Made by a program: the position numbers and the translations under genes
The notes under the pieces: generated by a model
Seen by the model: only the letters and a program-made list of their open reading frames with translations
Database searches by the model: none
What the model was told of the DNA's origin: nothing
NCBI RefSeq assembly: GCF_988243305.1
Contig: NZ_OZ547136.1
Length of the DNA: 64,000 nucleotides
Strand: one strand, 5' to 3'
In this document: positions 35,338-54,249 of the stretch, piece after piece
How the letters are laid out: every line of letters starts with the position of its first letter
Position numbering within the stretch: position 1 is the stretch's first letter

Positions 35338-35621
35338 AAAAAGCATTCCTTGCCCTGAAAAAGAGGGGGATATTCAATGTGAAGTGAATGCTTTGTTATA
35401 TCAAACTATTGCTGTGATGATCAAAAACACGATCATTTTCAATACGTTATAAATATGAATTGGAAATATTAATTGTTCTAATGAATGCGTGTTGAGGTGT
35501 TTCTTAATATATTTTGATTTATCCTGGAATGGTATTTTTGCAGAAACAAAGACGCTAACTTTTATTTTTTATTCGCAGCATAATGACGCCGTTTGCCAGT
35601 GCAATTTGACAGGAGTCATTC

Positions 35622-37721: not shown

Positions 37722-37764
37722 TATGGAATAATATCCTCTTTACCATGCAATCAAGGATCCTCTA

Positions 37765-38499
37765 ATGACAACCAAACTACTGGACCTGAGCTGGAATGCA
37801 AATGCCATCCCGGCGATGCAAATTGTCGGTACGCGCGCGGCCTTGTTTACCTTCAAAACGCATATGGCAGGGTTTGTCTGGGATGCCGCGCAACTGGAAA
37901 ATAACCCCTATACCTTTGTTGAAGTTAAAACGCTGCTCGATGGCGTCACCGTTGGCGGGCATAAGGTCAGTGATACTGAGCAGGTGTTGAACCTGGCAGA
38001 TAGCGCAAAAAAACTGATTGAACTTGTGCAATCCGGGCGTTTCGATCTTGATAAGAAAACGTTCACGTTGCTTAACGGCATTATTGCGCGTAATGAGGCG
38101 CTGGAGTGGGGCGTTTTTCGCGGCGAAGGTGATGAGTTACATTACAATGCGCGCGTTCACCTCGGCGAGTTGGGCACCCATTTCCCACCAGCCACAGAAG
38201 CAGGTGCACCTGAACTGAATCGAATATTCGCCGCAGGTGTGGCACAAATAAAAGAGATGCCACCGTTCGAAGGGGCGCTGGCAATGTTTTTATTTGGTGC
38301 TTATTTTCAGTTTTTCTTTGATGGCAACAAGCGTACCAGTCGCCATATGATGAACGGCTGGTTAATGCGCCACGGTTACAATCCCATTAGTGTACCCGCA
38401 GCTCGTGCGCTGGAGTTCAACAGCAAAATGGTGCGCTTTTATCACAGCAAAGATGCCAGTGAAATGATGGCATTTTTGGTGGATTGCTATCAGGTTTGA
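37765..38499 (+). CDS. Fic/Doc-like protein with non-canonical active-site motif (Q-x-F-x-DGNKR)
   Basis: 244-aa ORF; segment AMFLFGAYFQFFFDGNKRTSRHMMNGWLMRHGYNPISV matches the Fic/Doc core (HxFx(D/E)GN(G/K)RxxR ... LL.RHGY.P) except that His is replaced (Gln/Phe); starts 44 nt after the GmrSD-like gene with AAGGA Shine-Dalgarno. Confidence 0.6.
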   Translation: MTTKLLDLSWNANAIPAMQIVGTRAALFTFKTHMAGFVWDAAQLENNPYTFVEVKTLLDGVTVGGHKVSDTEQVLNLADSAKKLIELVQSGRFDLDKKTFTLLNGIIARNEALEWGVFRGEGDELHYNARVHLGELGTHFPPATEAGAPELNRIFAAGVAQIKEMPPFEGALAMFLFGAYFQFFFDGNKRTSRHMMNGWLMRHGYNPISVPAARALEFNSKMVRFYHSKDASEMMAFLVDCYQV

Positions 38500-38637
38500 A
38501 TAAGTGCTGGATGGTGTCCCAATGCTGCCATCCAGCCCCTTCATATCAACTTCCCTATCTTTTCCTAAAACGTGATGCTATTTCCAACATTCGAATCATC
38601 AGTGCACGAAAAGCAGATCGTAAAGAGAGGAATCGCT

Positions 38638-38940
38638 ATGAGCATGGTTAAACATAAACGAGGGACCTCCTCTACACTCGATGTGCAGCATGAGGCCGAA
38701 TTGAAGGCGCTGGCGAATAAATTCGACGAAGAGATTGATTACAGCGATATCCCACCTTCCAGCGATGAGCAATGGTCTAACGCAGAACGCGGTAAGTTTT
38801 ATCGGCCATTGAAAACCCAGGCTTCGGTGCGTATTGATGCTGATGTGATGGAATGGCTGAAGCGACCTGGTAAAGGCTATCAAACTCGCCTGAACGCAAT
38901 TTTACGTGAAGCGATGCTGCGCGATCAGAACAAAAAATAA
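38638..38940 (+). CDS. BrnA-like (COG3514) ribbon-helix-helix antitoxin-family protein
   Basis: 100-aa product from the ATG at 38638 (AGAGAGG Shine-Dalgarno); C-terminal RIDADVMEWLKRPGKGYQTRLNAILREAM resembles the BrnA antitoxin signature; no BrnT-like (DUF497) partner ORF adjacent. Confidence 0.65.
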   Translation: MSMVKHKRGTSSTLDVQHEAELKALANKFDEEIDYSDIPPSSDEQWSNAERGKFYRPLKTQASVRIDADVMEWLKRPGKGYQTRLNAILREAMLRDQNKK

Positions 38941-38973: not shown

Positions 38974-39930
38974 TTACTTCCTCAACCCCGCAAACGCCGC
39001 CCGAATCTCATCCTCCGGCAGCTGAATCCCGATAAACACCATCGTGCTATGCGGTTTTTCATCGCCCCACGGCCTGTCCCAGTCGGCGCTGTAGAGGCGC
39101 TGGACGCCCTGGAACAGCAGGCGGTTAGGTTCGCCGTCAATCCACAGCATCCCTTTGTAACGCAGCAGTTTATCTGCCGATTCCAGCAGCAGGTTTTCCA
39201 TCACGCGGGAAACTTCGCTGATATCTACCGGGTAATCCAGTTCCACCACAATCGACGAAATATCGTTTTGTTTATCCGCGATAAAGTGGAAACGCGGTTT
39301 GGTGCTGACGACGTTTTCTTCCAGCATAAAACCGTTGGTGTTGAACAACAGGCCCAGGTCGATGTCGCCGTGGGTGACGGTGTAGACCGGCGCGCGGGCG
39401 TTGATGCGTGCCAGACGTTCACGCAGTTTCTCTGCTTCGCCTGCGACGTCGGTTTTAGTCAGCAGAATACGGTCGGCGTAGCCAACCTGGGACTGGGCGA
39501 TGGTGAACTGGTTCATCTGCTCATCGGCATGTACCGCATCCACCAGCGCAATCACGCCGTCCAGCAGGTAGCGCTGGCATAAAATCTCATGGGAGAAAAA
39601 GGTCTGAATAATCGGGCCAGGATCGGCCATGCCGGTGCATTCAATGACCAGACGGTCGAACTGAATATTGCCCTTGTCGAGATTGTCCAGCAGGTCGAGT
39701 AGCGCGTCCTCCAGCTCGTTGGAGCGCGAACAGCAGATGCAGCCGTTGGTCAGCGTTTTGATCTGCGTGGCGCGGTCGCCAATCAGTTGATCATCAACGG
39801 AGACTTCGCCGAATTCGTTTTCAATCACGGCAATCTTGTAGCCGTGTTGTTCGTTAAGAATATGGCGCAGCAGGGTAGTTTTGCCCGCGCCTAAAAAACC
39901 GGTGAGTAGGGTCACTGCAATCGGGTTCAT
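38974..39930 (-). CDS. yjiA: CobW/P47K-family GTPase YjiA
   Basis: 318-aa product from MNPIAVTLLTGFLGAGKTTLL (P-loop); GGAGAG Shine-Dalgarno; the track ORF start is an upstream in-frame extension. Confidence 0.88.
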   Translation of the reverse strand: MNPIAVTLLTGFLGAGKTTLLRHILNEQHGYKIAVIENEFGEVSVDDQLIGDRATQIKTLTNGCICCSRSNELEDALLDLLDNLDKGNIQFDRLVIECTGMADPGPIIQTFFSHEILCQRYLLDGVIALVDAVHADEQMNQFTIAQSQVGYADRILLTKTDVAGEAEKLRERLARINARAPVYTVTHGDIDLGLLFNTNGFMLEENVVSTKPRFHFIADKQNDISSIVVELDYPVDISEVSRVMENLLLESADKLLRYKGMLWIDGEPNRLLFQGVQRLYSADWDRPWGDEKPHSTMVFIGIQLPEDEIRAAFAGLRK

Positions 39931-39940
39931 GCTCTCTCCA

Positions 39941-40144
39941 TTAACAACAGCGCATACCGCCTTTACCATCGCCGCCGTAGCGCGCGTTCTGGCGTTCGCG
40001 GAAGAATTCTTCATAGCTCATGTACGGCTTGTCGGGATGGTTGGTCTTCATATGCTCGACGTAGTTGTCGTAGTCTGGAATGCCAATCAACATCTTCGCC
40101 GCCTGGCCGAGATATTTTTTTGCCTGTCCTAAGTTACCAAACAT
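39941..40144 (-). CDS. yjiX: Small protein YjiX (CstA-associated, DUF466)
   Basis: 67-aa ORF immediately downstream of btsT, ending in a cysteine-rich tail (GGMRCC). Confidence 0.85.
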
Positions 40145-40193
40145 AGTTCACTCTGATAAGAACAAAGCCCCGCCGAAGCGGGGCTAAACACGG

Positions 40194-42344
40194 TTAGTGG
40201 TGCGAAGAGATCTTCACGCCGCCTTCCGGGATTGGAACGTACGGTGTTTCTTTGTCAGTACGTTTGTCGCTGTTACGCACCGCAAGCCAGGTTTTGAAAC
40301 CATAGAAGATGATGCTGTACACCACGATCAGGAACAGAATACTCAGACCTGCGTTGGTGTAGTTATTCACAACGATGTGGTTCATGTTGGCAATCTGCTG
40401 CGCCGTCAGGTCAGTACCGTTAGCAATCTTCTCTTTGTACTGGCTTGCCATGTAGAAGAAGCCTTCCATCTGCGGGTTGGTACTGAACAGTTTCAGGCCC
40501 AGCGCCCAGGTGGTGCAGATAAGCAGCCATACAGCCGGAACAACAGTTACCCAGATGTATTGGGTGCGCTTCATCTTAATCAGCACAACGGTACCCAGTA
40601 CCAGCGCCACGGCGGCCAGCATCTGGTTGGAGATACCGAACAGCGGCCACAGGCTCTTAACGCCGCCCAGCGGATCGACCACGCCCTGATACAGCAGGTA
40701 GCCCCACAGACCCACACAGCCCGCAGTACCGATGATACCAGCAACCAGAGAGTCGGTTTTTTTCAGGAACGGGATGAAGTTACCCAGCAGGTCTTGCAGC
40801 ATAAAGCGGCCAGAACGGGTACCCGCATCCAGCGCGGTCAGGATGAACAGGGCTTCGAACAGAATACCGAAGTGATACCAGAAGCCCATGTCAGCCATCG
40901 GCAGTACTTTGTGGAACACGTGAGCGATACCTACCGCCAGCGTTGGCGCACCACCTGCACGGTTCAGGACAGAAGGCTCACCAATGTCTTTCGCGGTTTG
41001 CAGGATCTGCTCTGGCGAAATCACGAAGCCCCAGGAGCTGACGGTCGCTGCCGCGTGTGCGGTAACGTCTTTCAGCTGCGCCATGATGATCGGCGCGTTC
41101 TCGCCACCCATTTCATGCAGGTTAGGCATGGTGATGCCAAGGCCAGCAGGCGGGGTATTCATCGCGAAGTAAAGACCCGGTTCGATGATGGACGCAGCAA
41201 CCAGCGCCATAATCGCCACGAAGGACTCCATCAGCATTGCGCCGTAGCCAATGAAACGCGCGTCGGTTTCATTAGCCAGCAGTTTCGGTGTCGTACCGGA
41301 AGAGATCAGTGCGTGGAAGCCAGATACCGCACCACAGGCGATGGTGATGAACAGGAACGGGAACAGAGCGCCTTTCCACAGCGGGCCAGTACCGTCAATG
41401 TACTGGGTCATCGCAGGCATTTTCAGTTCCGGGTTCAGCACCACGATACCCAGCGCCAGGCCGACGATAACGCCGATTTTCAGGAAGGTTGCCAGATAGT
41501 CGCGCGGTGCGAGGATCAGCCACACTGGCAGCAGTGCGGAAACAAACGCATAGCCAATCAGCGCGAAGGTAATGGTGGTGTCTTTAAAGGTCAGTGCCGG
41601 ACCCCAGTACGGATCGTGAGCAATCACGCCACCGAAGTAGATAGAGGCAACCAGCAGCACGATACCAATGACAGAGACTTCACCCACACGCCCCGGACGG
41701 ATAAAGCGCATGTAGATACCCATAAACAGCGCAATCGGTACGGTTGAGCAAACGGTGAAGACACCCCACGGACTTTCGGCCAGGGCTTTAACCACAATCA
41801 GCGCCAGGACGGCGAGGATGATGATCATGATTAAGAAACAGCCAAACAGCGCGATAGTCCCCGGTACTGGTCCCATCTCTTCTTTGATCATCTCACCGAG
41901 AGATGCGCCGTTACGGCGAGAGGAGATAAACAGCACCATAAAGTCCTGTACCGCACCGGCCAGCACGACCCCCGCCAGCAGCCACAGCGTGCCAGGCAGG
42001 TAGCCCATCTGCGCGGCGAGAACCGGACCCACCAGCGGACCAGCACCGGCGATAGCGGCGAAGTGGTGACCAAACAACACGTAACGGTTGGTCGGAACAT
42101 AGTTCAGACCGTCGTTGTTAATAACCGCAGGCGTCGCTCGCGTGGGGTCGAGTTTCATTACCTTCTGGGCGATGTACAGACTGTAGTAGCGATAAGCCAC
42201 CAGATACACCGACACAGAGGCGACCACGATCCACAGGGCACTGACGTGCTCCCCCCGACGTAATGCAACTACCGCGAGGCAGAATGCACCGATGATTCCG
42301 AGAATCACCCAGGGTATGTGCTTGAATAGTTTTTTCGTATCCAT
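40194..42344 (-). CDS. btsT: Pyruvate/H+ symporter BtsT (CstA family)
   Basis: 716-aa product from MDTKKLFKHIPWVILGIIGAF...; CstA-family polytopic transporter; start set at the internal ATG 42344. Confidence 0.9.
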   Translation of the reverse strand: MDTKKLFKHIPWVILGIIGAFCLAVVALRRGEHVSALWIVVASVSVYLVAYRYYSLYIAQKVMKLDPTRATPAVINNDGLNYVPTNRYVLFGHHFAAIAGAGPLVGPVLAAQMGYLPGTLWLLAGVVLAGAVQDFMVLFISSRRNGASLGEMIKEEMGPVPGTIALFGCFLIMIIILAVLALIVVKALAESPWGVFTVCSTVPIALFMGIYMRFIRPGRVGEVSVIGIVLLVASIYFGGVIAHDPYWGPALTFKDTTITFALIGYAFVSALLPVWLILAPRDYLATFLKIGVIVGLALGIVVLNPELKMPAMTQYIDGTGPLWKGALFPFLFITIACGAVSGFHALISSGTTPKLLANETDARFIGYGAMLMESFVAIMALVAASIIEPGLYFAMNTPPAGLGITMPNLHEMGGENAPIIMAQLKDVTAHAAATVSSWGFVISPEQILQTAKDIGEPSVLNRAGGAPTLAVGIAHVFHKVLPMADMGFWYHFGILFEALFILTALDAGTRSGRFMLQDLLGNFIPFLKKTDSLVAGIIGTAGCVGLWGYLLYQGVVDPLGGVKSLWPLFGISNQMLAAVALVLGTVVLIKMKRTQYIWVTVVPAVWLLICTTWALGLKLFSTNPQMEGFFYMASQYKEKIANGTDLTAQQIANMNHIVVNNYTNAGLSILFLIVVYSIIFYGFKTWLAVRNSDKRTDKETPYVPIPEGGVKISSHH

Positions 42345-42736
42345 AGTAAAACCTGGCATTTTACTCGTCGTCTTTTGGCTTACAGGTGCGGCAGCTGCGT
42401 TCGTTCACCCCTGTCACTTACTGTTGTAAGCTCCCGGGGATTCACTCACTTGCTGCCTTCCTGCAAACCAAAATCCATAGAGTAATTTGTTAATCATAGG
42501 CCGAAGCCGTTCTAGGTTTGCGTTGCGTTTGAGGAGGTAAATTGACCGCTATCCTGCAGTGATGTTGCCAGAGATACGCGCGCGTAAAGTAAGGTAAATA
42601 ACTGAGTGGTTATTTTAGGGATGTAAGCGGTCAGGAATGGCGGTGAGCGGTTGGGCAAGAATTATTCATCGGGTGGATATGTGATTGAGATCACAATAAA
42701 AATGCCCCTTCGACGAATGCGTGAAGGGGCTGGAGC

Positions 42737-43249
42737 TTAAATCGCAGCTTCCATTTCCAGCATCACCGGATGGAAACGGCGTTTAAAGTAGATAAGTCCG
42801 TGACCTTCTGCACTGAGGATGATGTTTTTAATCTCCACCAGATACACCAGATGTGTGCCAATTGCCTGCACATCGCGGATCTCACCTTCAAGACTGGCCA
42901 GCGAACCTTTTAGCACCGGCTGCGCCAGCGGACCTTTTTGCCAGCATGAGAGGCTAAAACGCTCTTCCATCGCCATGCCTGTCATGCCCGCGAAGTGGCG
43001 TGCCATCAGTTCCTGCTCATGGTTGAGGACGTTGACGCACAACTTGCCGTTGCCCTGAAAAACCGGGTTCATCGCACTGTTGGCGTTAATGCACACCATC
43101 AGCGACGGTGGTGTATCCGTGACCGAGCAGACAGCCGTTGCCGTAATCCCGCATTGTCCGGCGTCGCCCTCGGTGGTGATAATATTTACCGCTGCCGACA
43201 GGCTGGCCATTGCGTCACGAAAGCGCAGGCGTTGTTCATCTAATTGCAT
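42737..43249 (-). CDS. hpaC: 4-hydroxyphenylacetate 3-monooxygenase, flavin reductase component
   Basis: 170-aa flavin-reductase-fold ORF immediately downstream of hpaB. Confidence 0.9.
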   Translation of the reverse strand: MQLDEQRLRFRDAMASLSAAVNIITTEGDAGQCGITATAVCSVTDTPPSLMVCINANSAMNPVFQGNGKLCVNVLNHEQELMARHFAGMTGMAMEERFSLSCWQKGPLAQPVLKGSLASLEGEIRDVQAIGTHLVYLVEIKNIILSAEGHGLIYFKRRFHPVMLEMEAAI

Positions 43250-43266
43250 CTTAACCTCCTGCTGCG

Positions 43267-44829
43267 TTATTTCAGCAGCTTATCCAGCATGTTGATATCG
43301 TCGTTGTTGTGCAGGTGCGGCACAGTCCAGCCGTTCTGGTCGTATTCCGACAGGCAGCGATCAACCATCGCCATCATCTTGTCCATATTGCCGGAGCTTT
43401 GTGCCTGGCGCAGACACTGCAGGCGAATCTCATCCTGGCTACCGGAGTAGTTGATTTCATACAGTTCGTGACGACCACCAAATTCGCTGCCAATAGCATC
43501 CCACATCAGTTTGAGGATCTTGATGCGCTGGACGTGATCCATACCGTTCGAACCGCGCACATACTTCGCCAGATACTGGTCGATCTGCGGATTGTTCAGG
43601 TCACGGGCACTGGAAGGGAGATAGATCAGGCCACTGGTAACGTTGCGTTCGATAATGTTTTTGATCTTCGCGTAGGCCATTGGTGCCAGTACGCGATAGG
43701 TTTGCAGTGCGGCATGATCCGGTAAATAAGCCCCGTTGACCCACGGCGTCGCTTCTGAACACATCGAGTCACTCAATGCCCAGAAGGTGTTGCGCCACGC
43801 CACCACTTCACCGAGATCGGCCTGCACACCACGGAACTCCAGGGTGCCGGTACATTCGAGTGATTTTTTCAGCAGTGCCGTAATGAAGTCGAGTTTCACT
43901 GCCAGGCGCACACAGGCTTGCAGCGGATACATACGGGCGAAACCGCCTTCCATCGTCCAGCGACGGCAGCGATCAAAATCGCGGTAGATCAGCACGTTTT
44001 CCCATGGGATCAGCACGTTATCCATCACCAGAATCGCATCGTTCTCATCGAAGCGGCTGGAGAGCGGGTAGTCGTACGGCGAGCCGGTAGCACCCGCGAC
44101 CATCTCATAAGAGGCGCGGGAGATTAATTTCACGCCATCGGCATCCATTGGCGCAACGAACATCAGTGCGAAGTCCGGGTTTTCGCCCATCACTTGTGCC
44201 GAGCCGAAGCCAATCATGTTGTAGTGAGTCAGCGCCGAGTTGGTGGCAACCACTTTCGCACCGCTGACGATAATCCCGGCGTCAATCTCTTTTTCCAGCT
44301 TGATGTAAACGTCTTTCACTTTATCGGTCGGCAAATGACGATCAATCGGTGGGTTAACAATCGCGTGGTTAAAGTAGAGGCCAGTTTCCTGAATACGGGT
44401 GTACCAGTTACGGGCGTTCTGCTCGAACTGACCGTAAAAGCCCGGATTCGCGCCCAGTGCGCAACCGAAAGCAGCCTTGTAGTCTGGGGTACGGCCCATC
44501 CAGCCATAGCTCAGGCGTGACCACTCAGCGATGGCGTCGCGTTGCTGGCGCAGGTCGTCGGCACTTTTCGCCACGCGGAAGAATTTATGGGTATAGCCGC
44601 CGCTGCCGGTGTCGGTGTTCCAACACAGAGAGTCCTGCATCTCCGGTTTGTGCAGCGCGTCGTACAGTTGGGCAACAGACGCTGCCGCATTACGAAATGC
44701 CGGATGAGTGGTGACGTCTTTCACTCGCTCGCCATAGATATAGATCTCGCGACCATCCTGCAGGCTTTTCAGATACTCTTCCCCGGTGAACGGACGTTGG
44801 GTACTGGCGCGGAAATCTTCTGGTTTCAT
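43267..44829 (-). CDS. hpaB: 4-hydroxyphenylacetate 3-monooxygenase, oxygenase component
   Basis: 520-aa ORF recognised as HpaB (FADH2-dependent two-component monooxygenase large subunit). Confidence 0.92.
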   Translation of the reverse strand: MKPEDFRASTQRPFTGEEYLKSLQDGREIYIYGERVKDVTTHPAFRNAAASVAQLYDALHKPEMQDSLCWNTDTGSGGYTHKFFRVAKSADDLRQQRDAIAEWSRLSYGWMGRTPDYKAAFGCALGANPGFYGQFEQNARNWYTRIQETGLYFNHAIVNPPIDRHLPTDKVKDVYIKLEKEIDAGIIVSGAKVVATNSALTHYNMIGFGSAQVMGENPDFALMFVAPMDADGVKLISRASYEMVAGATGSPYDYPLSSRFDENDAILVMDNVLIPWENVLIYRDFDRCRRWTMEGGFARMYPLQACVRLAVKLDFITALLKKSLECTGTLEFRGVQADLGEVVAWRNTFWALSDSMCSEATPWVNGAYLPDHAALQTYRVLAPMAYAKIKNIIERNVTSGLIYLPSSARDLNNPQIDQYLAKYVRGSNGMDHVQRIKILKLMWDAIGSEFGGRHELYEINYSGSQDEIRLQCLRQAQSSGNMDKMMAMVDRCLSEYDQNGWTVPHLHNNDDINMLDKLLK

Positions 44830-45055
44830 GTCGACCTCTACAGTATTAATCGGAATACGATTGTTAATTTTGTGTGTTGTTTTTGTTATTCAATTGAATC
44901 GTTGAACGCGGTTGTCGGGAAGAGACGTTTCAGGCGAACGTTGGTACTTTTCGCCAGCAAGGTGGAGTTAAATAGTAAACTGCGATCGTGATCAACTTAC
45001 AGTAAGGCAAATCATAATATTCCCCGCTAACAAGGGCTAACGGGGACGGAATTGT

Positions 45056-45994
45056 TTATGGGGCGAATGGAATGGTAATCGTCATATTTTCATGACCAAC
45101 GACGATAGGGCCTGAATAGTTTTTCTGTGCTTCTTGCTTCCATGTTTCATCCGGAACGGTGATTGGTACCAGGTGGCTAAGGATGAGTTTTTTCACTTTT
45201 GCTTCATTGGCAATTTTGCCTACATCCTCAATAGTCGTATGGTGAGAAGCAATGGCTTTTGCCAGTGTTTTACCATTGCCAATACTGTCTGCCAGCTTAG
45301 CGACGGAGGGCTCATGTACGGCCTCATGCACAAGTATATCAGCGCCTTCTGAGAAAGTTGCCAGTGGGGGAAAGTACGAGGTATCTCCTGAGAAGACAAT
45401 TCGCTTGCCTTGTGTGTCGAAGCGATAAGCAAAAGCCTCACCGTCAGGGAAAGGAGAATGAGGAACCTTTAATGCAGTCACGGTCACGGTATCATCTTTA
45501 TAAACTACGCCTTCACCAACATCTTGAGCTGTAACGAGCTTGCGAGGATCGGGTTTTCCTTCTTCTTCCATACGCAGTGTGATGTCCCGATCGAAGACCT
45601 GCCAACTGGCAGCGGTCATGGCTCGGGTACCTGGCGGACCGAACACATGAATATTTTTGTCCTGCAGACCGCTAGCCCATGCATTCATTAAGACTGAGGG
45701 ATAGTCCAGAATATGATCACTGTGTAAATGGGTGAGTAAAATATTATCAATCTGGCGCAGTGGAATATTATTTTTTACCAGTTGTAAGCTGGCCCCGTAA
45801 CCAGCATCAATTAACCATGTTTTATTGCCAATAATAAGTGCCGTTGCCATCGGCAAACGGTCAGCTTTTAATAAAGAAGGGCCACCTTTCGTTCCAAGTA
45901 GTACAATTTTCATTTCTTGCAGTTCGGAGGCGTAGGTGAATGCCACTGGCGCAATCAGGCACGCCACAAATAGTGAGCGTAAAGATATTTTCAT
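45056..45994 (-). CDS. Metallo-beta-lactamase-fold hydrolase with signal peptide (function unknown)
   Basis: 312-aa product from MKISLRSLFVACLIAPVAFTYA (signal-peptide-like); HxHxDH motif (THLHSDH); lies between hpaA and hpaB. Confidence 0.75.
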   Translation of the reverse strand: MKISLRSLFVACLIAPVAFTYASELQEMKIVLLGTKGGPSLLKADRLPMATALIIGNKTWLIDAGYGASLQLVKNNIPLRQIDNILLTHLHSDHILDYPSVLMNAWASGLQDKNIHVFGPPGTRAMTAASWQVFDRDITLRMEEEGKPDPRKLVTAQDVGEGVVYKDDTVTVTALKVPHSPFPDGEAFAYRFDTQGKRIVFSGDTSYFPPLATFSEGADILVHEAVHEPSVAKLADSIGNGKTLAKAIASHHTTIEDVGKIANEAKVKKLILSHLVPITVPDETWKQEAQKNYSGPIVVGHENMTITIPFAP

Positions 45995-46020
45995 GTCGAG
46001 TCTCTCAGGTTGATAAATGG

Positions 46021-46914
46021 TCAGCGACCACGGAATTGTGTTGGTGAGCAACCCATCATTCGGTTGAAAAAACGGGCGAAATAGGCGGGATCTTTGTAGC
46101 CAAGATCAAGGGCAATCTGGTTGATGCTTTGCTCGCTATAGAGCAGAAGCCGTCTGGCTTCCCGGCTCATTCGTTCGAAAATCAATCTCTTCGGCGATTG
46201 ATTGGCAAAACGTCGGCATAGCTCGGTAAGCCGTGATTCACTCATACCGAGCATTGCTGCATATTCAGGGACCATTAAATGTTGGCGATAATTTTCGTCA
46301 ATCAGCCGATTAAACTTCTGGAATAAACACATCTCGCCGCGCACGCTGCATGTTGAAATATCATTTGGTGGTGCTTCACGCAGTAGGATTGTAAAAATAC
46401 TTTGCGCCAGTGATTGCAATAGAATTTCCCGTCCTGGCTTATTTTGTTGAAACTCCAGGGATATTATCGGCCAATAATGATTTAATGCCGCCAGTGTATG
46501 TTCCATTCCCTCCAGCGACAGACAGATACCTTGTAGCATTGCGGCATCTCCACTACCAGGCCAGAGCTTTTCTACCAGGGGCCAAATTAACTCCTGACGT
46601 ACGGTCAGAACATGCCCGTCGCTATCAGGCTCAGTAAAGAAAGTATGTGGCACCGATGGTGGTGTTAGTACAAAAAGCGGTGCGCGCACAGAATAGAAGT
46701 GCTCATCCAGCTGTAAAGTAATGCGTCCAGTGACCAGATAATGGAGTTGAAAATATCTATCGTGCCAGTGAGGGCGCATATCGCGTCCAAAGAAATTCGC
46801 TAACCTGGCAAATGTTTCATAATGCACATCTTCACCAGCGTAGCGGGCATCATATTCCCGGACCAAATCAATATTTTCATAACCATGTTCAAAGATAGCT
46901 TCACTGGACATCAT
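46021..46914 (-). CDS. hpaA: AraC/XylS-family activator of hpaBC
   Basis: 297-aa ORF with N-terminal cupin-like sensor and C-terminal AraC-type HTH (QIALDLGYKDPAYFARFFNRMMGCSPTQFR). Confidence 0.85.
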   Translation of the reverse strand: MMSSEAIFEHGYENIDLVREYDARYAGEDVHYETFARLANFFGRDMRPHWHDRYFQLHYLVTGRITLQLDEHFYSVRAPLFVLTPPSVPHTFFTEPDSDGHVLTVRQELIWPLVEKLWPGSGDAAMLQGICLSLEGMEHTLAALNHYWPIISLEFQQNKPGREILLQSLAQSIFTILLREAPPNDISTCSVRGEMCLFQKFNRLIDENYRQHLMVPEYAAMLGMSESRLTELCRRFANQSPKRLIFERMSREARRLLLYSEQSINQIALDLGYKDPAYFARFFNRMMGCSPTQFRGR

Positions 46915-46920
46915 GACTCC

Positions 46921-48288
46921 TTATTGCGGTTTTGGTGCGATAAGTTCAGATGAAAGAGAGTGTTCCCGACTCCCCATAGGAATTCGGGTCATGACTAACG
47001 CGCCCAGTACCAGTAATCCTGCTACAAACCACAAACCTGAGCTAAAACTGCCGGTTGCATCTTTCAAAATACCGATAAGTAATGGACTGACTGCTGAACC
47101 TACATTACCGACAGCATTGATGACAGCCATCGCAACGGCACGCGATTGCAAGCTTATTACTTGATCCGGTGTCGTCCAAAAGATAGCCATTGCGGTAAAT
47201 GATCCCATTGAGGCCATAATGATGCCGCTCAGTTGAATGAGGCTGTGATCAGTCGCAGAAGCGAGTAACCATCCGGCAGCGGCAAACAGGTAGGGAAGAA
47301 TCGTATGCTTTTTGCGTTCTTTAAGACGGTCGGAACGACGACTCCACCAGATCATGCCAAAAATTGTGCAGAATTGGGGGATGGCCGCCAGCAAACCAAT
47401 CATGATGTTGCTACTGCCAGTATTGAAACTCTGTAGGATTTGCGGCGTCCAGATATTAATCGCACTCAGAGTATTGGTCAGGCAAAAATAAGCAAGTGTA
47501 TATAGCATGATGGCTGGGGTCAGGACTTCACGTAAGGTTGAGCGTGGAACAGATGCATGGGCAAATGCACTCTCTTGTTCACGGAGAATCATCGTTTTTA
47601 AAGCCTGTTTTTCGTTTTCATCAAGCCAGGTCGCCTGGTCTGGTGTATCGTTGAGATAAAACCAGGTGACGACACCAAGAATGACCGATGGCAGACCTTC
47701 CAGCAAAAAGAGCCATTGCCAGCCTTTTAGATTCCACAGTCCATCCAAGGCCAGAATGTAGCCTGAAAGGATCGATCCCAGCATCATAGTGACTGGCATC
47801 GCTATCATAAATAAGGCATTGGCTCTGGCCCGATGATATGCCGGGAACCACCAGGTCAGATAAACCAAAATACCAGGTAAAAAACCCGCCTCAGCAATAC
47901 CAACCAGCATACGCAGTAGATAGAGTGTTTCGGGGCTTGTTGCAAACATTGTGCAGGTGGAAGCAACTCCCCAGACCACCATGATCCCAGCGATCCATCG
48001 ACGAGCGCCAATTTTCGCTAACATCATATTACTGGGGATCCCGCACATGACGTACGTGACATAAAAGAGTGTCGCGGCGAGGCCAAACATTGTGGACGTC
48101 AGGCCAAGATCCTTGCCCATTGTCAGTCCGGCAAATCCTATATTGATGCGATCAAGAAACGAAAAAACAAACAGAATAAAAAGAAAAATGATTAGGCGAC
48201 GAAATAATTTATTAATGACACGATGTTCAATTTCAACAGTTTTATTATCTTTATATTGCAGGGTAGAGGTCGTCATGATGCGCTCCAC
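46921..48288 (-). CDS. hpaX: 4-hydroxyphenylacetate MFS permease
   Basis: 455-aa 12-TM MFS transporter in the expected position of the hpa cluster. Confidence 0.85.
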   Translation of the reverse strand: MERIMTTSTLQYKDNKTVEIEHRVINKLFRRLIIFLFILFVFSFLDRINIGFAGLTMGKDLGLTSTMFGLAATLFYVTYVMCGIPSNMMLAKIGARRWIAGIMVVWGVASTCTMFATSPETLYLLRMLVGIAEAGFLPGILVYLTWWFPAYHRARANALFMIAMPVTMMLGSILSGYILALDGLWNLKGWQWLFLLEGLPSVILGVVTWFYLNDTPDQATWLDENEKQALKTMILREQESAFAHASVPRSTLREVLTPAIMLYTLAYFCLTNTLSAINIWTPQILQSFNTGSSNIMIGLLAAIPQFCTIFGMIWWSRRSDRLKERKKHTILPYLFAAAGWLLASATDHSLIQLSGIIMASMGSFTAMAIFWTTPDQVISLQSRAVAMAVINAVGNVGSAVSPLLIGILKDATGSFSSGLWFVAGLLVLGALVMTRIPMGSREHSLSSELIAPKPQ

Positions 48289-48297
48289 ATCGTACGT

Positions 48298-49101
48298 TTA
48301 GTAGACAGAGTTGTTGTTTTGCTTCGCCATCGAAATAGAAGAACTATTACCAAACCGTGCTGCCAGCGCTTCGGCGGCGCGGGCGAGCAGGGTGGTGTCA
48401 ACGCCGACGGCGACAAATAGCGCGCCCAGTTCCAGGTAGTGTTTTGCCAGTTGCTCATTGGCGATCAGGATACCCGGCGCCTTACCCGCTTCGCGGATCT
48501 GCACGATCGCCTGCTCAATCGCGGCCTGCACTTCCGGGTGTTGCGGATTACCGGCATAACCCATATCGGCGCTCAGATCCGCCGGGCCGATAAACACGCC
48601 GTCGACGCCTTCCACGTCCAGAATCTGCGGTAAGTTCTTCATTGCCTCACGCGTTTCGATCTGCACCAGTACGCACATTTGATCGTTGGCTTTTTGCAGG
48701 TAATCCGGAATACGGTTCCAGCGCGAGGCGCGTGCCAGCGCACTGCCCACACCGCGAATACCGGCGGGGGGATAACGGGTGGCGCGTACCGCTTCACGGG
48801 CTTCGTCGGCGTTTTGTACCATCGGCACCAGTAAGGTTTGTGTGCCGACGTCCAGCAGTTGTTTGATTTGCACCGGATCGTTCCACGATGGGCGTATCAC
48901 CGGCTGGCTGGGGTAGGGCGCAATCGCCTGTAGCTGGGTGAGCACGGTTTGCACGTTATTCGGCGCGTGCTCACCGTCGATCAATAACCAGTCGAATCCT
49001 GCTCCGGCCAGTAACTCTGCGCTGTAGCTGCTACTCAGCCCCAGCCATAATCCGATCTGCGGGCGGCCTGCTTTCAGCGCCGCTTTAAAACTGTTTTCCA
49101 T
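48298..49101 (-). CDS. hpaI: 2,4-dihydroxyhept-2-ene-1,7-dioate aldolase
   Basis: 267-aa product from the ATG at 49101 ([21 protein letters not shown]..., GGAGAG Shine-Dalgarno); HpcH/HpaI aldolase family. Confidence 0.85.
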
Positions 49102-49111
49102 CGTTCTCTCC

Positions 49112-49915
49112 TTAAACAAAGCGGCAGCTAATGGAGCCCATGTTGCCGTAATCGACGTGGAAGGTGTCGCCCTTACGCGCCGGAACCGGGCGGGTGAACG
49201 AACCGCCGAGAATGATTTGCCCGGCTTCCAGTTGTACGTCATACGGTGCGAGTTTGTTCGCCAGCCAGGCTACGCCGTTTGCCGGATGATTCAGCACACC
49301 AGCGGCGACGCCGGTTTCTTCAATCACGCCATTGCGATACATCAGGGCGGAGATCCAGCGCAGATCCAACTCATCGGGCTTAATGGGACGACCGCCGAGG
49401 ATCACCCCGGCGTTGGCGGCGTTATCGGAAATGGTGTCGAACACTTTGCGCGGGCGCTGGGTTTCCGGATCGATGTTGTGGCAGCGAGCGTCGATCAGCT
49501 CCAGCGCCGGGATCACATAATCCGTGGCGTTGTAGACGTCGAACAGCGTGCAGTTTGGTCCACGCAGCGGTTTTGCCAGCACGAAAGCCAGCTCCACTTC
49601 AATGCGCGGCACGATAAAGCGATCGGTCGGGATATCGCTGCCATCGTGGAAGAACATGTCATCCAGCAGGGCACCGTAATCCGGTTCGCTGATTTGCGAG
49701 CTGGCCTGCATCGCTTTCGAGGTCAGGCCGATTTTGTGGCCTTTCAGCGTACGGCCTTCGGCAATTTTCAGGCGGACCCATTCGCGCTGCACCGCGTAAG
49801 CGTCTTCGATGGTGATCTCCGGGTAATCCAGCGAGATCGCGCGGATCTGTTCGCGCTGTTTTTCTGCCTGATCCAGACGCTGGGCGATCAGGGTGTGGGT
49901 GTGTTTATCGAACAT
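49112..49915 (-). CDS. hpaH: 2-oxo-hept-3-ene-1,7-dioate hydratase
   Basis: 267-aa product from [14 protein letters not shown]...; hydratase/decarboxylase family; the track ORF start 49933 is an in-frame upstream extension. Confidence 0.85.
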
Positions 49916-49982
49916 GGCGATATCCTGTGGCATTGCCGGATGCGGCTGCGCCTTATCATCCGGCCTGGAAGCTGGTACAAAT

Positions 49983-50363
49983 TTATTTAAACAACGCGTG
50001 TACGTTGTTCTGTTTGAAATTCAACGTCGGGTGCAGCTCTGCAATCTCAAATGAAAGCGCCAGGTAACGGCTCTCCATCAGTGAGGCGAAGTGCGTTTTA
50101 ATCAGATCAAACAGCATTTCGCCTACTTCCTGACGGCTTTCCAGACTGCGCCCGCTGCCGATTTTTAGCGTCATATGCACAAAGGCGTAATCGTGCTTGC
50201 CATCAGCCATTTGCCAGGTATCGATCCAGTGCGCCCGGCTACGTATTCCCCCAAGCGGAAAAATCCCCGTCGCCGCCAGTGCAGTGTTAACACTGGCAAA
50301 CAGCTCAGGTAAGCGGGCTTCTTGACGAATATTTTCAGTACATTCCACGATAAAGTGCGGCAT
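49983..50363 (-). CDS. hpaF: 5-carboxymethyl-2-hydroxymuconate isomerase
   Basis: 126-aa [15 protein letters not shown]...; CHM isomerase family. Confidence 0.85.
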
Positions 50364-50372
50364 GGTGGTTCC

Positions 50373-51224
50373 TTACGCGGGAAGCGGGAAAACAGCGTTA
50401 ACCTGACCGGTGCCAGAGCTTGGGAACAGCTCGGTGATAAACTCTACCTTGCCGTCGTATTTATCCCAGCCGAGCATCCCCAGCAGCATCACCGTGTCGT
50501 GCATATTGCCTTCGCCGTAGCAGTAGTCAGCGTACTCCGGCAGCATATTGCAGAACTCTTTGAACTGGCCTTCGCGCCACAACTTCACCACGCGCTCGTC
50601 CATCTGGCGGTCGAACTCGCGGGTGTAGCTGTTCATCCCTTCTTCCGCACGCTGATCGTCAATAAAGCGGTGCGATAATGAACCGCTGGCAAGGACCGCC
50701 ACGGTGCCGTCGTACTGTTCGATCGCTTTCAGAATCGCTTCGCCCAGCTTGCGGCTGTCGGCAAAATCATGAACGGTACAGAATGCGGAGATGGAGACCA
50801 CTTTGAAGTGCTTGTCTTCATTCATGTAGCGCATTGGCACCAGCGTGCCGTATTCCAGTTTCAGGCTGGGAATGTTGTGCGCTTTTGCCCGCACGCCGAG
50901 CTTTAAGGCTTCATCGGCAATTAGCTGCCCCAACTCCGGGTTGCCCTCGTAGTTGTAGGTCATGTCACGAATAAAATGCGGCAGCTCGTTACTGGTGTAG
51001 ACGCCTTCAAAATGGTCTGCACAGTTGATGTGATAAGCACTGTTGACCAGCCAGTGAGTATCGAAAACGATAATGGTATCGACGCCCATTTCCCGGCAAC
51101 GCTTGCTGATCTCTTTATGCCCGTCGATCGCGCCCTGGCGGCAACCGTGGTTTTTCCCTGGCAGTTCAGAGAGATACATCGACGGTACGTGCGTGATCTT
51201 GGCGGCTAACGCTAACTTACCCAT
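50373..51224 (-). CDS. hpaD: 3,4-dihydroxyphenylacetate (homoprotocatechuate) 2,3-dioxygenase
   Basis: 283-aa extradiol dioxygenase (LigB-type) ORF in the hpa meta-cleavage operon. Confidence 0.88.
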   Translation of the reverse strand: MGKLALAAKITHVPSMYLSELPGKNHGCRQGAIDGHKEISKRCREMGVDTIIVFDTHWLVNSAYHINCADHFEGVYTSNELPHFIRDMTYNYEGNPELGQLIADEALKLGVRAKAHNIPSLKLEYGTLVPMRYMNEDKHFKVVSISAFCTVHDFADSRKLGEAILKAIEQYDGTVAVLASGSLSHRFIDDQRAEEGMNSYTREFDRQMDERVVKLWREGQFKEFCNMLPEYADYCYGEGNMHDTVMLLGMLGWDKYDGKVEFITELFPSSGTGQVNAVFPLPA

Positions 51225-51225
51225 A

Positions 51226-52692
51226 TCAGACTCCCCATTTCGGAATTGGATGGTCGCCCATGGAAATGCAGACGTTCTTCATTTCCGCGAACACTTCGAA
51301 GCTGTACTCACCGCCTTCACGCCCGGTGCCGGAGGCTTTTACGCCGCCAAATGGCTGGCGCAGGTCACGCACGTTCTGGGTGTTGACGAACACCATGCCA
51401 GCTTCAATGCCACGCGCCAGGCGTAACACTTTGCTGACATCCTGTGTCCAGATGTACGACGCGAGGCCGTACTCCACGTCGTTTGCCAGACGTAAGCCTT
51501 CGGCTTCGTCTTTAAACGGCAGCAGGCAGGCGACCGGCCCGAAAATCTCTTCCTGGGCGACTCGCATACGGTTATCAACGTCTGCCAGCACGGTTGGGCG
51601 CAGGAAGTTGCCGCCTTTCAGGTGCGCAGGCAGGTCGGACGGTTTATCCGGACCGCCCGCCAGCAGGGTTGCGCCTTCTTCAATGCCGAGACGAATATAG
51701 CCGGAGACTTTTTCCCAGTGTTGCTGGCTGATAAGCGCCCCAACCTGGGTATTCGGATCGTTCGGATCGCCCACGCGCAGACGGTTGGCGCGTTCGGCAA
51801 AGCGTTTAACGAATTCCGGGTAGATGCTTTGCTGAATAAAGATGCGCGAACCGGCGGTGCAGCGCTCGCCGTTGATCGAGAAGATGGTGAACAGGGCAGC
51901 GTCCAGCGCGCGTTCAATATCGGCATCTTCAAAAATCAGCACCGGCGATTTACCGCCCAGTTCCATGGAGTATTTTTTCAGCCCGGCGTTTTTCATGATG
52001 TTGCGCCCGGTGGCCGTACCGCCGGTGAACGACACGGCACGTACGTCATGATGACGAACCAGCGCATCGCCTGCGGTTGCGCCGTAGCCCTGTACCACGT
52101 TCAGCACGCCCGCCGGAATACCGGCTTCCAGCGCCAGCTCACCCAGGCGGTCAGCGGTCAGCGGGGAGAGTTCCGACATTTTCAACACCGCGGTATTGCC
52201 CAGCGCCAGACACGGCGCGACCTTCCATGTGGCGGTCATAAACGGCACGTTCCACGGCGATACCAGCGCACAAACGCCTACCGGTTGCACCAGCGTGTAG
52301 TTGAGCATCTTGTCGTCAACCGGATAGGTCTTGCCGTTCATCTGCTGGCAGACTTCCGCGAAAAATTCAAAGTTGTGAGAAGCGCGTGGGATCAATACAT
52401 TTTTGGTCTGATGGATCGGCAGGCCCGTGTCCGCGGTTTCCATCGCGGCGATCTCAGGCACGTTCTGGTCGATCAGATCGCCCAGACGGCGCATCAGGCG
52501 CGCACGCTCTTTCATCGGCAGATTGGCCCATTTCGGGAACGCCTCTTTCGCTGCCGCTACCGCCTGATTGATCTCCGCTTCACCGCCGGAGGCCACATCT
52601 GCCAGCACTTCACCCGTTGCCGGATTGGTGGTCTGGAAGTAGTCGTTACCTGCAACATTTTTGCCGTTGATCCAATGATTTACTTTTTTCAT
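51226..52692 (-). CDS. hpaE: 5-carboxymethyl-2-hydroxymuconate semialdehyde dehydrogenase
   Basis: 488-aa NAD-dependent aldehyde dehydrogenase ORF (ELGGKSP, catalytic Cys context GERCTAGSR). Confidence 0.9.
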   Translation of the reverse strand: MKKVNHWINGKNVAGNDYFQTTNPATGEVLADVASGGEAEINQAVAAAKEAFPKWANLPMKERARLMRRLGDLIDQNVPEIAAMETADTGLPIHQTKNVLIPRASHNFEFFAEVCQQMNGKTYPVDDKMLNYTLVQPVGVCALVSPWNVPFMTATWKVAPCLALGNTAVLKMSELSPLTADRLGELALEAGIPAGVLNVVQGYGATAGDALVRHHDVRAVSFTGGTATGRNIMKNAGLKKYSMELGGKSPVLIFEDADIERALDAALFTIFSINGERCTAGSRIFIQQSIYPEFVKRFAERANRLRVGDPNDPNTQVGALISQQHWEKVSGYIRLGIEEGATLLAGGPDKPSDLPAHLKGGNFLRPTVLADVDNRMRVAQEEIFGPVACLLPFKDEAEGLRLANDVEYGLASYIWTQDVSKVLRLARGIEAGMVFVNTQNVRDLRQPFGGVKASGTGREGGEYSFEVFAEMKNVCISMGDHPIPKWGV

Positions 52693-53978
52693 TTCGCTGT
52701 TTCCTCACTCACAATTCGGTTCACCAGGCGGCCCACGCCTTCTACTTCCACCACTACTTCATCGCCAGGCACCACGTCAGATAAGCCTTTTGGTGTGCCG
52801 GTGGCGATCATGTCGCCCGGATTCAGGGTCATAAATTCGCTTAAGTAGGCGATCAGGAAGGGCACGCTGAAGATCAGATCGGCGGTGGTGCCTTGCTGGC
52901 GTAACTCGCCGTTGACGAAGGTGCGAAGGGTCAGATTATGCGGGGCCGGGATCGCCTCTTTCGGCACGATGGTTGAAAGCATCGGCGTCAGTCCGTCGCG
53001 GCTTTTTACCCGCAGGTTAGGGCGGTAGTAGTTTTCCAGATAGTCGCGAATGGCGTAGTCGTTACACACGGTGTAGCCCGCGACATAATCCATGGCATCG
53101 GCTTCGCTGACGTTACGCGCCTGCTTGCCAATAACTACCACCAGCTCCGCTTCGTAGTGCATGTATTCAATATTGTTCGGGCGCACGGAGGTCTGGTTAT
53201 CGCCAGTGAGGGTATTCGGCGCTTTCAGGAACACCAGCGGTTCTTCCGGTGGCTTAAATTCCAGTTCGCTGGCGTGGTCGGCGTAGTTCAGGCCGAGGGC
53301 AAACAGCGTGCCGTGCGGGTGTGGCTGCGTTGGGAAGCTCTTGCGCGTGGTCACTTCACGTTCGTCCACTACCGGATTTTCCAGTGGCGGGAAACCTTCT
53401 GCGAGAACACGCACGCGATCGCCTGGCTGTATTTCCACGCGCGCCTGTGGCGTGCCGAGCAGAATGGCATCGCCTGGATTCAGCGTGGCAAATTCGCTCA
53501 GGGCGCTCAGCAACTGTGCGGCGTTACGTTGTAAATCGGCGGTATTCCAGTGATCGGCAGGACGCCCGTTGATCTCGGTATAGATAGTCAGATTATCGAC
53601 ATTGCTGAGAGCCACGGTTTCGCCAATGGGGCAGAATCCATCACGACATTTTGCTTTGATTGCCGGGCGGTAAAAGCTCTCTTCCGGCAGGCTGACGTCG
53701 TTAGCCAGCGCATATCCGGCGATGTACTCTGCCGCATCTTCTTCACGTACTTTCGTCGCCGTTTTCCCCACCATCAACGCAACAGTCGCACCGCTCAGTA
53801 CCTTTTCACCCTGTGGAAAGGGAATCCGTTCACCGCAACCAATCACCGTATTGCGCGGTTTAATAAACCAGACCGCAGTTTTAGGCGGGGTTTTGTAGGG
53901 GGATTGCTGGAACGCTTCCTGCCATGCATCAAGCTGGCTGCGATGGTTCAACGCTACGGCGAAGATAGTGCCTTTCAT
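52689..53978 (-). CDS. hpaG: Bifunctional OPET decarboxylase / HHDD isomerase (tandem FAH-fold domains)
   Basis: 429-aa product from MKGTIFAVALNH...; two fumarylacetoacetate-hydrolase-like halves; 4-nt overlap with hpaE start. Confidence 0.88.
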   Translation of the reverse strand: MKGTIFAVALNHRSQLDAWQEAFQQSPYKTPPKTAVWFIKPRNTVIGCGERIPFPQGEKVLSGATVALMVGKTATKVREEDAAEYIAGYALANDVSLPEESFYRPAIKAKCRDGFCPIGETVALSNVDNLTIYTEINGRPADHWNTADLQRNAAQLLSALSEFATLNPGDAILLGTPQARVEIQPGDRVRVLAEGFPPLENPVVDEREVTTRKSFPTQPHPHGTLFALGLNYADHASELEFKPPEEPLVFLKAPNTLTGDNQTSVRPNNIEYMHYEAELVVVIGKQARNVSEADAMDYVAGYTVCNDYAIRDYLENYYRPNLRVKSRDGLTPMLSTIVPKEAIPAPHNLTLRTFVNGELRQQGTTADLIFSVPFLIAYLSEFMTLNPGDMIATGTPKGLSDVVPGDEVVVEVEGVGRLVNRIVSEETAK

Positions 53979-54249
53979 TACCACTCCTCGGATTCGATCA
54001 TCTTAATCATTAATATGTTAATGATTACTTTTATTCCCGATTGCGTAGTTTGGCAAAAGTAAGTGATGTAAATGTGATCTAATTAACAAACTATTTACAT
54101 TTGCAGGTAATAAAATACTAAATATCAGTAAGTTAATAAAGTATGCTCAATTTTGATAAAATGAGGAATTGCGGGGATAGCTCAGTCCCGGTAACGTGAT
54201 GATTAACTGTTTCTATATTAATGATTTTGAATTTTTCAGGGGAAAGATA

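Follow-up and report, generated by a model that had tools for sequence, protein, structure and literature searches.

Why should a gene for a predicted exported hydrolase of the metallo-beta-lactamase (MBL) fold stand between hpaA and hpaB? The question is raised by a 64,000-nucleotide stretch of Escherichia coli chromosome (contig NZ_OZ547136.1, RefSeq assembly GCF_988243305.1; the window), which is 100% identical over positions 44700-46300 to strain Z1323HEC0462. The hpa cluster of E. coli W, for the catabolism of 4-hydroxyphenylacetate (4-HPA), is a standard example of aromatic catabolism and is widely used in engineering (HpaBC and the HpaA/PBC sensor, PBC being the promoter of hpaBC). A preliminary description of the window held that hpaA lies directly upstream of hpaBC in the described cluster, and this is the case in strains W and RM9245, which have a 250-bp spacer and no extra gene; the published arrangement PA-hpaA-PBC-hpaBC is the same as that of W (PMC4468947). 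The analysis reported here indicates that the additional gene, hereafter the MBL gene, is very probably tied in function to hydroxyphenylacetate catabolism. Its product may be a hydrolase that opens phenolic conjugates ahead of the pathway.

The MBL gene and its product

The preliminary description had placed an intact open reading frame (ORF) of 312 amino acids, with a signal peptide and a THLHSDH motif, between hpaA and hpaB, and coordinates, translation and RefSeq all agree. The identical gene is WP_001305623.1, labelled solely "MBL fold metallo-hydrolase." A chance ORF is ruled out by the match to the Pfam model Lactamase_B_2 (E = 3e-20; 73 bits vs. a cut-off of 27) and by 5174 database relatives at E <= 1e-10; a second model, Lactamase_B, scores 46 vs. 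22.7. THLHSDH occupies residues 88-94 and supplies the HxHxDH motif of the superfamily, the remaining metal-ligand positions (H179, D204, H252 and H274) are all present, and the family signature reads LLGTKGGPS ... HLHSDH ... SHHT. Across 22 aligned relatives (40-77% identity), LLGTKGGP, H89, H91, H94, H179, D204, E224, H252 and H274 are invariant, and D93 is nearly so, being N in one Salmonella sequence (P0007). The AlphaFold2 model (pLDDT 90.2, pTM 0.87) has the alpha-beta/beta-alpha sandwich of the superfamily, and its top Foldseek matches are all MBL-fold proteins.

The N-terminus (MKISLRSLFVACLIAPVAFTYA, followed by SELQ) contains basic residues, a hydrophobic core and an A-x-A-like end, with a maximum Kyte-Doolittle 10-residue mean of 2.78. 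Taken together, these features are best explained by an active, exported hydrolase with two metal ions, which would reside in the periplasm. Two other readings of the N-terminus were rejected. A longer ORF from a TTG at 46051 (331 amino acids, overlapping hpaA) does not fit a signal peptide that begins at the Met of the ATG at 45994, the start on which RefSeq and homologues concur. A lipoprotein reading via Cys12 (FVAC) would leave 11 residues before the Cys and Phe at position -3, and the position of the Cys is inconsistent among homologues.

Export signals differ across the family. Gammaproteobacterial homologues have Sec-type leaders with N-termini that resemble that of the E. coli protein, Bradyrhizobium homologues have twin-arginine leaders (MIDRRNALKLALGSAA...AQ), and Roseomonas-type members have no leader and start a few residues ahead of the LLGTKGGP motif. 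By these leaders, most of the family is predicted to be periplasmic, although not all of it. One set of Salmonella alleles (P0139-P0148) is 307 amino acids long, with five residues missing in the hydrophobic core of its signal peptide (MMKKSVAMLAQSHLAIAAG).

Recurrent linkage to hydroxyphenylacetate catabolism

Gene neighbourhoods were surveyed with one genome per species, which gave 486 relatives, the best 80 of which were examined; further contigs were reached by exact-protein look-ups. Salmonella has the order hpaG...I-hpaX-hpaA-MBL, with a 13-nucleotide gap before an MBL gene whose product is 76-81% identical to that of E. coli; there, hpaC-hpaB-hpaR lie on one strand and are followed by divergent hpaG. 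Judging from gene order, the Salmonella orthologue is presumably STM1109, listed as "putative periplasmic protein." The order hpaI-hpaX-hpaA-MBL recurs in a third enterobacterial lineage, represented by a metagenomic contig with a GC content of 59%. The preliminary description would have given up its view of the locus if reference clusters had the same gene, in the same place, with an established role; Salmonella has the gene in that place (hpaX-hpaA-MBL), and no established role goes with it.

Beyond the enterobacteria, the gene closes or accompanies clusters of several kinds. In Pseudomonas putida it ends the hpa meta-cleavage operon (OprD-hpaG1-G2-E-D-F-MFS-H-I-MBL), and in four species of Alcanivorax a divergent hpaA-like AraC regulator is followed by hpaG1-G2-E-D-F-H-I-MBL. 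Salinisphaera and Cobetia have hpa-like genes, a 625-amino-acid phenol-hydroxylase-like flavoprotein and a TRAP transporter, followed by the MBL gene. In Stutzerimonas stutzeri KOS6, an hpaA-like regulator, TRAP and MFS transporters and the MBL gene precede an oxygenase of the acyl-CoA-dehydrogenase fold and a 313-amino-acid flavin reductase, a pair that we take to resemble the C2/C1 4-HPA 3-hydroxylase of Acinetobacter; in this respect the layout is like that of E. coli, where the hydroxylase genes also follow the MBL gene closely.

Other neighbourhoods belong to adjoining routes. More than 10 loci of Roseomonas and related metagenome-assembled genomes have the order TctC-homogentisate 1,2-dioxygenase (hmgA)-MBL-FAD monooxygenase-DUF2783 with overlapping stops and starts, where the monooxygenase-DUF2783 pair presumably resembles MhaAB, the 6-hydroxylase of 3-hydroxyphenylacetate. 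Achromobacter has FMN-dependent dehydrogenase-TctC-MBL and then a dioxygenase resembling 4-hydroxyphenylpyruvate dioxygenase, and Acinetobacter ANC 3832 has MBL-GMC oxidoreductase-aldehyde dehydrogenase-LuxR-copper amine oxidase. In Bradyrhizobium, the order is pheS-pheT-TauE/SafE-MBL; the gene of this type (L021 7083-7859 and about 29 other loci) always follows that of the TauE/SafE-family anion exporter, downstream of pheS-pheT.

The linkage is therefore conserved across diverged lineages, in hpa, homogentisate and amine-oxidase contexts, and the MBL gene is very probably a recurrent accessory gene of hydroxyphenylacetate catabolism with a functional link to it. Because it accompanies two ring-cleavage routes and also the steps that feed them from amines and keto acids, the pattern cannot go back to one inherited arrangement. 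The partner pathways have in common a hydroxyphenyl substrate with its phenolic ring, whereas side chain and route of ring cleavage differ.

Relation to S4 arylsulfatases and other MBL enzymes

A profile search was among the checks proposed in the preliminary description for sub-classifying the fold, and the nearest solved structure is PDB entry 8GYG, "a novel arylsulfatase from Pseudoalteromonas atlantica" (4e-52, 180 bits, full length, with the family profile), followed by PNGM-1 (103 bits) and RNase Z (101 bits). A search with the single protein likewise gives 1e-25 for 8GYG and 9e-20 for RNase Z. The best PDB match of the model in Foldseek is also 8GYG (TM score 0.82-0.84), ahead of Bacillus subtilis RNase Z, PNGM-1, YhfI and BA1088. 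By profile and by structure, then, S4 is the characterised MBL branch nearest to the protein. A literature search found no paper describing 8GYG.

Family S4 of SulfAtlas was founded on AtsA of P. carrageenovora, requires at least 30% identity to AtsA together with HxHxDH, and forms a small clade beside RNase Z (PMC5066984). The S4 enzymes (AtsA, P28607; the P. atlantica/Paraglaciecola T6c enzyme, 8GYG) and the E. coli protein alike have about 300-330 amino acids and belong to the ElaC/AtsA branch of the fold, and the MBL family and 8GYG have the motifs LGT.GGP, HLH.DH, GDT and HH.T in common. A His-His doublet is present in both (SHHT in the MBL family, THHLT in 8GYG), whereas RNase Z has Y-H. 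Unlike the MBL family, with its invariant Lys in LLGTKGGPS, 8GYG has Met at that position, and the S4 gene of Paraglaciecola has polysaccharide sulfatases as neighbours rather than hpa genes. The taxa listed for S4 do not take in the MBL family (PMC5066984), and a search with 8GYG recovered proteins of Paraglaciecola, Alteromonas, Sphingomonas and Blastomonas but not this family. The alignments thus describe the E. coli protein as a member of an S4-like sister family and not of S4 itself. One Sphingomonas S4 member sits in a TonB receptor-S4-FAD monooxygenase-MFS-cupin cluster, so S4 relatives have also been recruited into aromatic catabolic clusters.

Lactonase, aryl-ester and RNase-Z-like hydrolysis had been named in the preliminary description as possible functions; the affinity to S4 leaves aryl-ester hydrolysis as the best-supported guess, and the RNase-Z-like function falls away. 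Although tRNase Z/ElaC/ZiPD (B. subtilis 1Y44, E. coli ZiPD 2CBN) shares the fold branch, the metal-ligand set and HEA- and HST-like motifs (E = 9e-20, TM 0.73-0.84), its flexible tRNA-binding arm of about 50 residues (residues 151-200 of 1Y44) is without counterpart in the MBL protein. With no exosite arm, an export signal and scores below all NCBIfam cut-offs for RNase Z (127 vs. 252 bits and 126 vs. 293 bits), tRNase Z was rejected. So were GntH, the MBL hydrolase of the guanitoxin cluster (NF041257; 129 bits vs. a cut-off of 333), and the PhnP, Apyc1, AidB and UlaG models, all far under cut-off. PNGM-1 (6J4N), a metagenomic B3-like beta-lactamase with tRNase Z activity, matches over the full length of the fold (query-normalised TM about 0.77) and has the HxHxDH site, but it is only about 22% identical, has 372 amino acids and has no known link to aromatic catabolism.

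A proposed deconjugating hydrolase

Ortho-hydroxylation needs a free phenol, so a conjugate must be opened before the pathway can act on it. Moreover, an exported hydrolase cannot reach cytoplasmic intermediates, and in other taxa the gene often lies near those for porins or for binding proteins of the periplasm (OprD, DctP, TctC); the simplest role would be deconjugation before uptake. The MBL protein would be made when 4-HPA or homoprotocatechuate induces the cluster and, once exported, would hydrolyse a conjugated, non-metabolisable hydroxyphenyl compound in the periplasm. HpaX could then import the phenolic acid set free, HpaA would respond to it and HpaBC would hydroxylate it. Given the affinity to S4, the leading candidate for the bond, and the most probable single choice, would be an aryl sulfate ester, such as that of 4-sulfooxyphenylacetate, 3,4-dihydroxyphenylacetate (DOPAC) sulfate or tyramine or dopamine O-sulfate. 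The cytoplasmic Roseomonas form, encoded beside a TctC receptor, would fit deconjugation after uptake.

The deconjugating role and the sulfate-ester substrate together offer the best explanation of the data, with different strengths. Taken alone, the step assigned to the protein, that of a deconjugating or pre-processing hydrolase, is somewhat better than an even bet, and for the deconjugating reading as a whole the probability is about 0.5. Cleavage of a sulfate ester specifically is a tentative assignment, made from homology. More speculative again is the extension that the proteins form a new sulfatase family, sister to S4. Enteric and environmental Proteobacteria would use it to desulfate conjugated phenolics (4-HPA sulfate, DOPAC sulfate, tyramine or dopamine O-sulfate) for entry of the ring into the Hpa or homogentisate routes, with the Salmonella orthologue behind a tyramine-linked arylsulfatase. 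In Salmonella, tyramine would yield 4-HPA, which would induce the hpa cluster, the MBL gene included; a 1981 paper by Murooka and Harada, listed in PMC8070173 (reference 36), reportedly concerns, as its title has it, the derepression of arylsulfatase synthesis through tyramine oxidase.

Two known systems offer parallels. In strains W and RM9245, the gene for penicillin G acylase (pac), likewise an exported hydrolase, adjoins hpa, and Prieto and colleagues are said to have proposed in 1996 that it scavenges phenylacetyl and 4-hydroxyphenylacetyl derivatives for these pathways. The analogy is one of function: the acylase is an Ntn hydrolase of unrelated fold that cuts amides and esters at the carboxyl side, and pac is absent from the window, which has restriction and defence genes instead. 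The Acinetobacter order MBL-GMC oxidoreductase-aldehyde dehydrogenase mirrors the sulfatase, alcohol dehydrogenase and aldehyde dehydrogenase series of the bet operon, which is ordered betC-betB-betA (choline-O-sulfatase, choline dehydrogenase and betaine-aldehyde dehydrogenase). Unlike the MBL protein, BetC is a formylglycine (S1) sulfatase, and the analogy is positional only.

An allelic cassette in E. coli

Compared with E. coli W by BLAST, the window is 98.3% identical over 38974-44952 and 96.1% over 48349-54691, whereas the block between them (44953-48348) is 67-69% identical or unmatched. The GC content of this block is 46%, against 54-58% for the flanking hpa genes and 52-54% for W's own hpaX-hpaA. 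The HpaA of the window is 58% identical in amino acids to HpaA of both W and Salmonella, which are 87% identical to each other, and its HpaX is 70-71% identical to HpaX of W and Salmonella. Because divergence and low GC span the whole block, the variant is read from its sequence as an allelic replacement, in which the transporter-regulator module gave way to the version of a lower-GC donor, the MBL gene included. Simple insertion between hpaA and hpaB was rejected, since the diverged block takes in hpaX and hpaA. Of the two origins offered in the preliminary description, an unremarked member of the cluster or an insertion, the former is borne out by the recurrence of hpaX-hpaA-MBL in Salmonella and the third enterobacterial lineage, and the latter is not, the whole block being a diverged allele.

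Two further differences lie outside the cassette. The hpaF gene of the window (49983-50363) encodes a protein 84% identical to HpaF of W, while the adjacent HpaH is 100% identical, and W has a longer hpaF-hpaH spacer. These differences point to a further, smaller patch of recombination within the meta operon, at hpaF. Upstream of yjiA, positions 28329-38940 hold a type I restriction-modification system (R, M, S), a GmrSD-domain endonuclease and a Fic-family gene. In the same position, W and RM9245 have yjiS and penicillin G acylase, and Z1323HEC0462 has a different methyltransferase/endonuclease pair and BrnT/BrnA. The region adjoining the hpa cluster is a hypervariable defence island.

Gene order and the hpaBC promoter region

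In the window, hpaR on the plus strand is followed on the minus strand by hpaG-E-D-F-H-I, hpaX, hpaA, the MBL gene, hpaB and hpaC, and then by btsT (Table 1). The region 42737..44829 (minus strand), which includes hpaB, is of the W type (99.8-100% amino acid identity). Gaps between the minus-strand genes are short, at 21 nucleotides for hpaI-hpaX (174 in W), 6-9 for hpaX-hpaA and 26 for hpaA-MBL, so that the MBL gene shares strand and close spacing with the hpa genes, as an accessory member would. It is probably the last gene of an hpaGEDFHI-hpaX-hpaA-MBL transcription unit that ends before PBC; as such, it would be induced along with the pathway. Ten nucleotides past its stop begins a hairpin with a centroid energy of -17.7 kcal/mol (z = -2.96 vs. 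shuffles), a candidate terminator.

Table 1. Features of the hpa region in the window, all on the minus strand
Feature	Positions	Strand	Basis and remarks
MBL-fold hydrolase gene (uncharacterised family)	45056..45994, including stop	minus	ORF and translation; ATG 45994, TAA stop; 312 amino acids
Predicted Sec signal peptide, codons 1-22	45929..45994	minus	MKISLRSLFVACLIAPVAFTYA; predicted cleavage after A22 (sequence features)
HLHSDH metal-binding motif (H89, H91, D93, H94)	45713..45730	minus	Sequence and homologue alignment
Diverged low-GC allelic cassette, 3.4 kb	44953..48348	minus	hpaI 3' end, hpaX, hpaA, MBL gene, distal hpaBC promoter region
hpaG-E-D-F-H-I meta-cleavage genes	48298..53978	minus	Annotation of matching record, shifted by +35699 to window positions; co-directional, upstream of hpaX-hpaA-MBL
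hpaX, MFS 4-HPA permease	46921..48288 (annotated start 48276)	minus	ORF and annotation
hpaA, AraC-family activator	46021..46914	minus	NCBIfam TIGR02297 HpaA, 490 bits vs. cut-off 275
hpaB	43267-44829	minus	ORF and annotation
Spacer from MBL stop to hpaB start, holding the hpaBC promoter region	44830..45055	minus	226 bp; alignment to W
11-bp hairpin followed by AAUAUUAUGAUUUG (U-rich), candidate terminator	45022..45046	minus	RNA folding

The 226 bp that the preliminary description counted upstream of hpaB stand, with the hpaB start at 44829. W has the same 70 bp next to hpaB; over a further 55 bp or so the two spacers agree in part (GAAAAGTACCA...GTCTCTTCCCG), and beyond that they are unrelated, the BLAST boundary falling at 44952. 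The conserved blocks GAAAAGTACCA and GTCTCTTCCCG may form a candidate HpaA operator. The motif AAAAGTACC, a possible operator half-site, occurs once in the hpaBC upstream region of the window (44878-44952) and twice in W (L002 9101-9117), at the hpaA end of the hpaA-hpaB spacer and about 100 bp before hpaB.

Distribution and conservation

Among 5426 complete E. coli genomes, 2071 have the hpaB-proximal sequence and 48, which include several resequenced copies of the same strain, have the MBL gene and with it the cassette. Each of the 48 carriers has one full-length copy of the gene, located on the chromosome and 99.0-100% identical. Relative to the window, three diverged carriers show 1-7 synonymous changes and share the same two nonsynonymous ones (L25P, N114T). 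The gene is intact in E. coli GDSC2227PM, where hpaA is annotated with an internal stop (L096 3966-4856), and in E. coli A30, where hpaI is annotated as frameshifted (L097 6243-6939). Between lineages, the MBL protein is also better conserved (75-77%) than HpaX (71%) or HpaA (57-58%). Intactness in every carrier, mostly synonymous differences and this higher conservation mark the gene, from sequence comparison, as being under purifying selection. In Shigella flexneri (P0150-P0158, including AAN45792 and AAP19570), N-terminally truncated or partial versions (147-255 amino acids) of the E. coli allele fit decay of the locus in Shigella.

Salmonella has variants of its own. Inactivation there was considered on account of the HLHSNH of P0007 and rejected, as this cluster representative alone has it and 26 other full-length members checked have HLHSDH. 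In seven contigs (e.g., L092 10001-11260 and L093 1412-2671), hpaD through hpaA are deleted and the MBL protein is fused, in an ORF of 419 amino acids, to the N-terminal part of the aldehyde dehydrogenase HpaE. In another contig (L086 1-9700), the usual site of hpaX-hpaA, directly upstream of the MBL gene, is taken by a Mu-like prophage (transposase, MuB, Gam, Mor, GemA, Kil).

Weighing the alternatives

Several observations weigh against a deconjugating sulfatase of the Hpa route. To our knowledge, no enzyme activity has been described for any member of the MBL family. Most E. coli, strain W included, grow on 4-HPA without the gene, which is thus dispensable for the core pathway, and the lack of a signal peptide in the Roseomonas group means that a strictly periplasmic role before uptake cannot apply family-wide. 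Homologues in P. guariconensis, P. sagittaria, Providencia, Photobacterium and Cupriavidus have no aromatic-catabolism neighbours within 8 kb, and in hpa-type contexts sulfur-related genes are unlinked to the MBL gene; the TauE/SafE neighbour in Bradyrhizobium is a single vertically inherited arrangement and weakly informative. A strict consensus scan of 44700-48500 for promoters and terminators found none above shuffle background, and the hairpin past the MBL stop was not called. Furthermore, identity to the P. atlantica enzyme, which stands in here for AtsA (P28607), is 26% over 290 residues and so falls below the 30% criterion of SulfAtlas, although HxHxDH is present, and S4 itself is known solely from artificial aryl sulfate substrates (PMC5066984).

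The accessory role could also be the same and the chemistry different, the bond being a phosphodiester or aryl phosphate ester, a carboxyl ester, or a lactone such as the benzofuranone-type lactones of 2-hydroxyphenylacetate and homogentisate. This is possible but doubtful. The family keeps ElaC-type HEA and HST-like motifs typical of phosphodiesterases, and its best NCBIfam matches are models of RNase Z, GntH and cyclic-nucleotide phosphodiesterases, yet all are below cut-off and the S4 profile score lies about 80 bits above that of any solved phosphodiesterase structure. Sulfate monoesters and phosphate diesters are isosteric, which makes either plausible on general grounds, but no natural aryl phosphodiester of these acids is known to us. 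Lactonase activity is widespread in the superfamily and some contexts of the gene are of the homogentisate type, whereas substrates of the homoprotocatechuate pathway cannot form an ortho lactone. As to carboxyl esters, their cleavage would not account for linkage to genes of tyramine and hydroxyphenylpyruvate metabolism, in which the side chains differ.

That the enzyme has nothing to do with hpa and is a neighbour by history only, perhaps a weak PNGM-1-like beta-lactamase, a periplasmic nuclease or phosphodiesterase, or a detoxifying enzyme, is improbable. About 2020 of the 2071 hpa-positive E. coli are without the gene, some homologues have no aromatic neighbours, and a periplasmic location together with the TM score of about 0.77 to PNGM-1 would suit a beta-lactamase. 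But identity to PNGM-1 is only about 22%, the Roseomonas MBL gene overlaps both of its operon neighbours, and at least nine lineages of Gamma-, Beta- and Alphaproteobacteria show the linkage, with differing positions and partner pathways (homoprotocatechuate, homogentisate, amine oxidase) that one shared ancestral arrangement leaves unexplained. Less probable still is that the gene came into E. coli with a horizontally acquired cassette and is silent or decaying there, with no function in this host. The foreign GC content of the cassette, the broken hpaA of GDSC2227PM and hpaI of A30, and the truncated S. flexneri copies would agree with it; it is opposed by a gene that is full length in 48 of 48 E. 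coli genomes with ligands and signal peptide intact, that varies between strains mostly at synonymous sites, and that is intact even where hpaA or hpaI is broken.

Significance

The MBL fold and the S4-like branch are known, and the searchable literature yielded no paper linking the MBL gene (WP_001305623) to hpa clusters; a 2025 study completing the 4-HPA pathway of Acinetobacter does not mention the gene. Apparently unreported, then, are the robust linkage of the MBL gene to hydroxyphenylacetate catabolism and the module swap in E. coli. The E. coli allele indicates that regulator, transporter and accessory gene can be swapped as one block within an otherwise conserved catabolic cluster. If the MBL protein does release phenolic acids or amines from their sulfate or other conjugates, hydroxyphenylacetate catabolism would gain an entry step, and the poorly understood arylsulfatase branch of the MBL fold a class of physiological substrates. 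For Salmonella and some E. coli, the enzyme would suggest a route to the use of host-conjugated phenolics in the gut.

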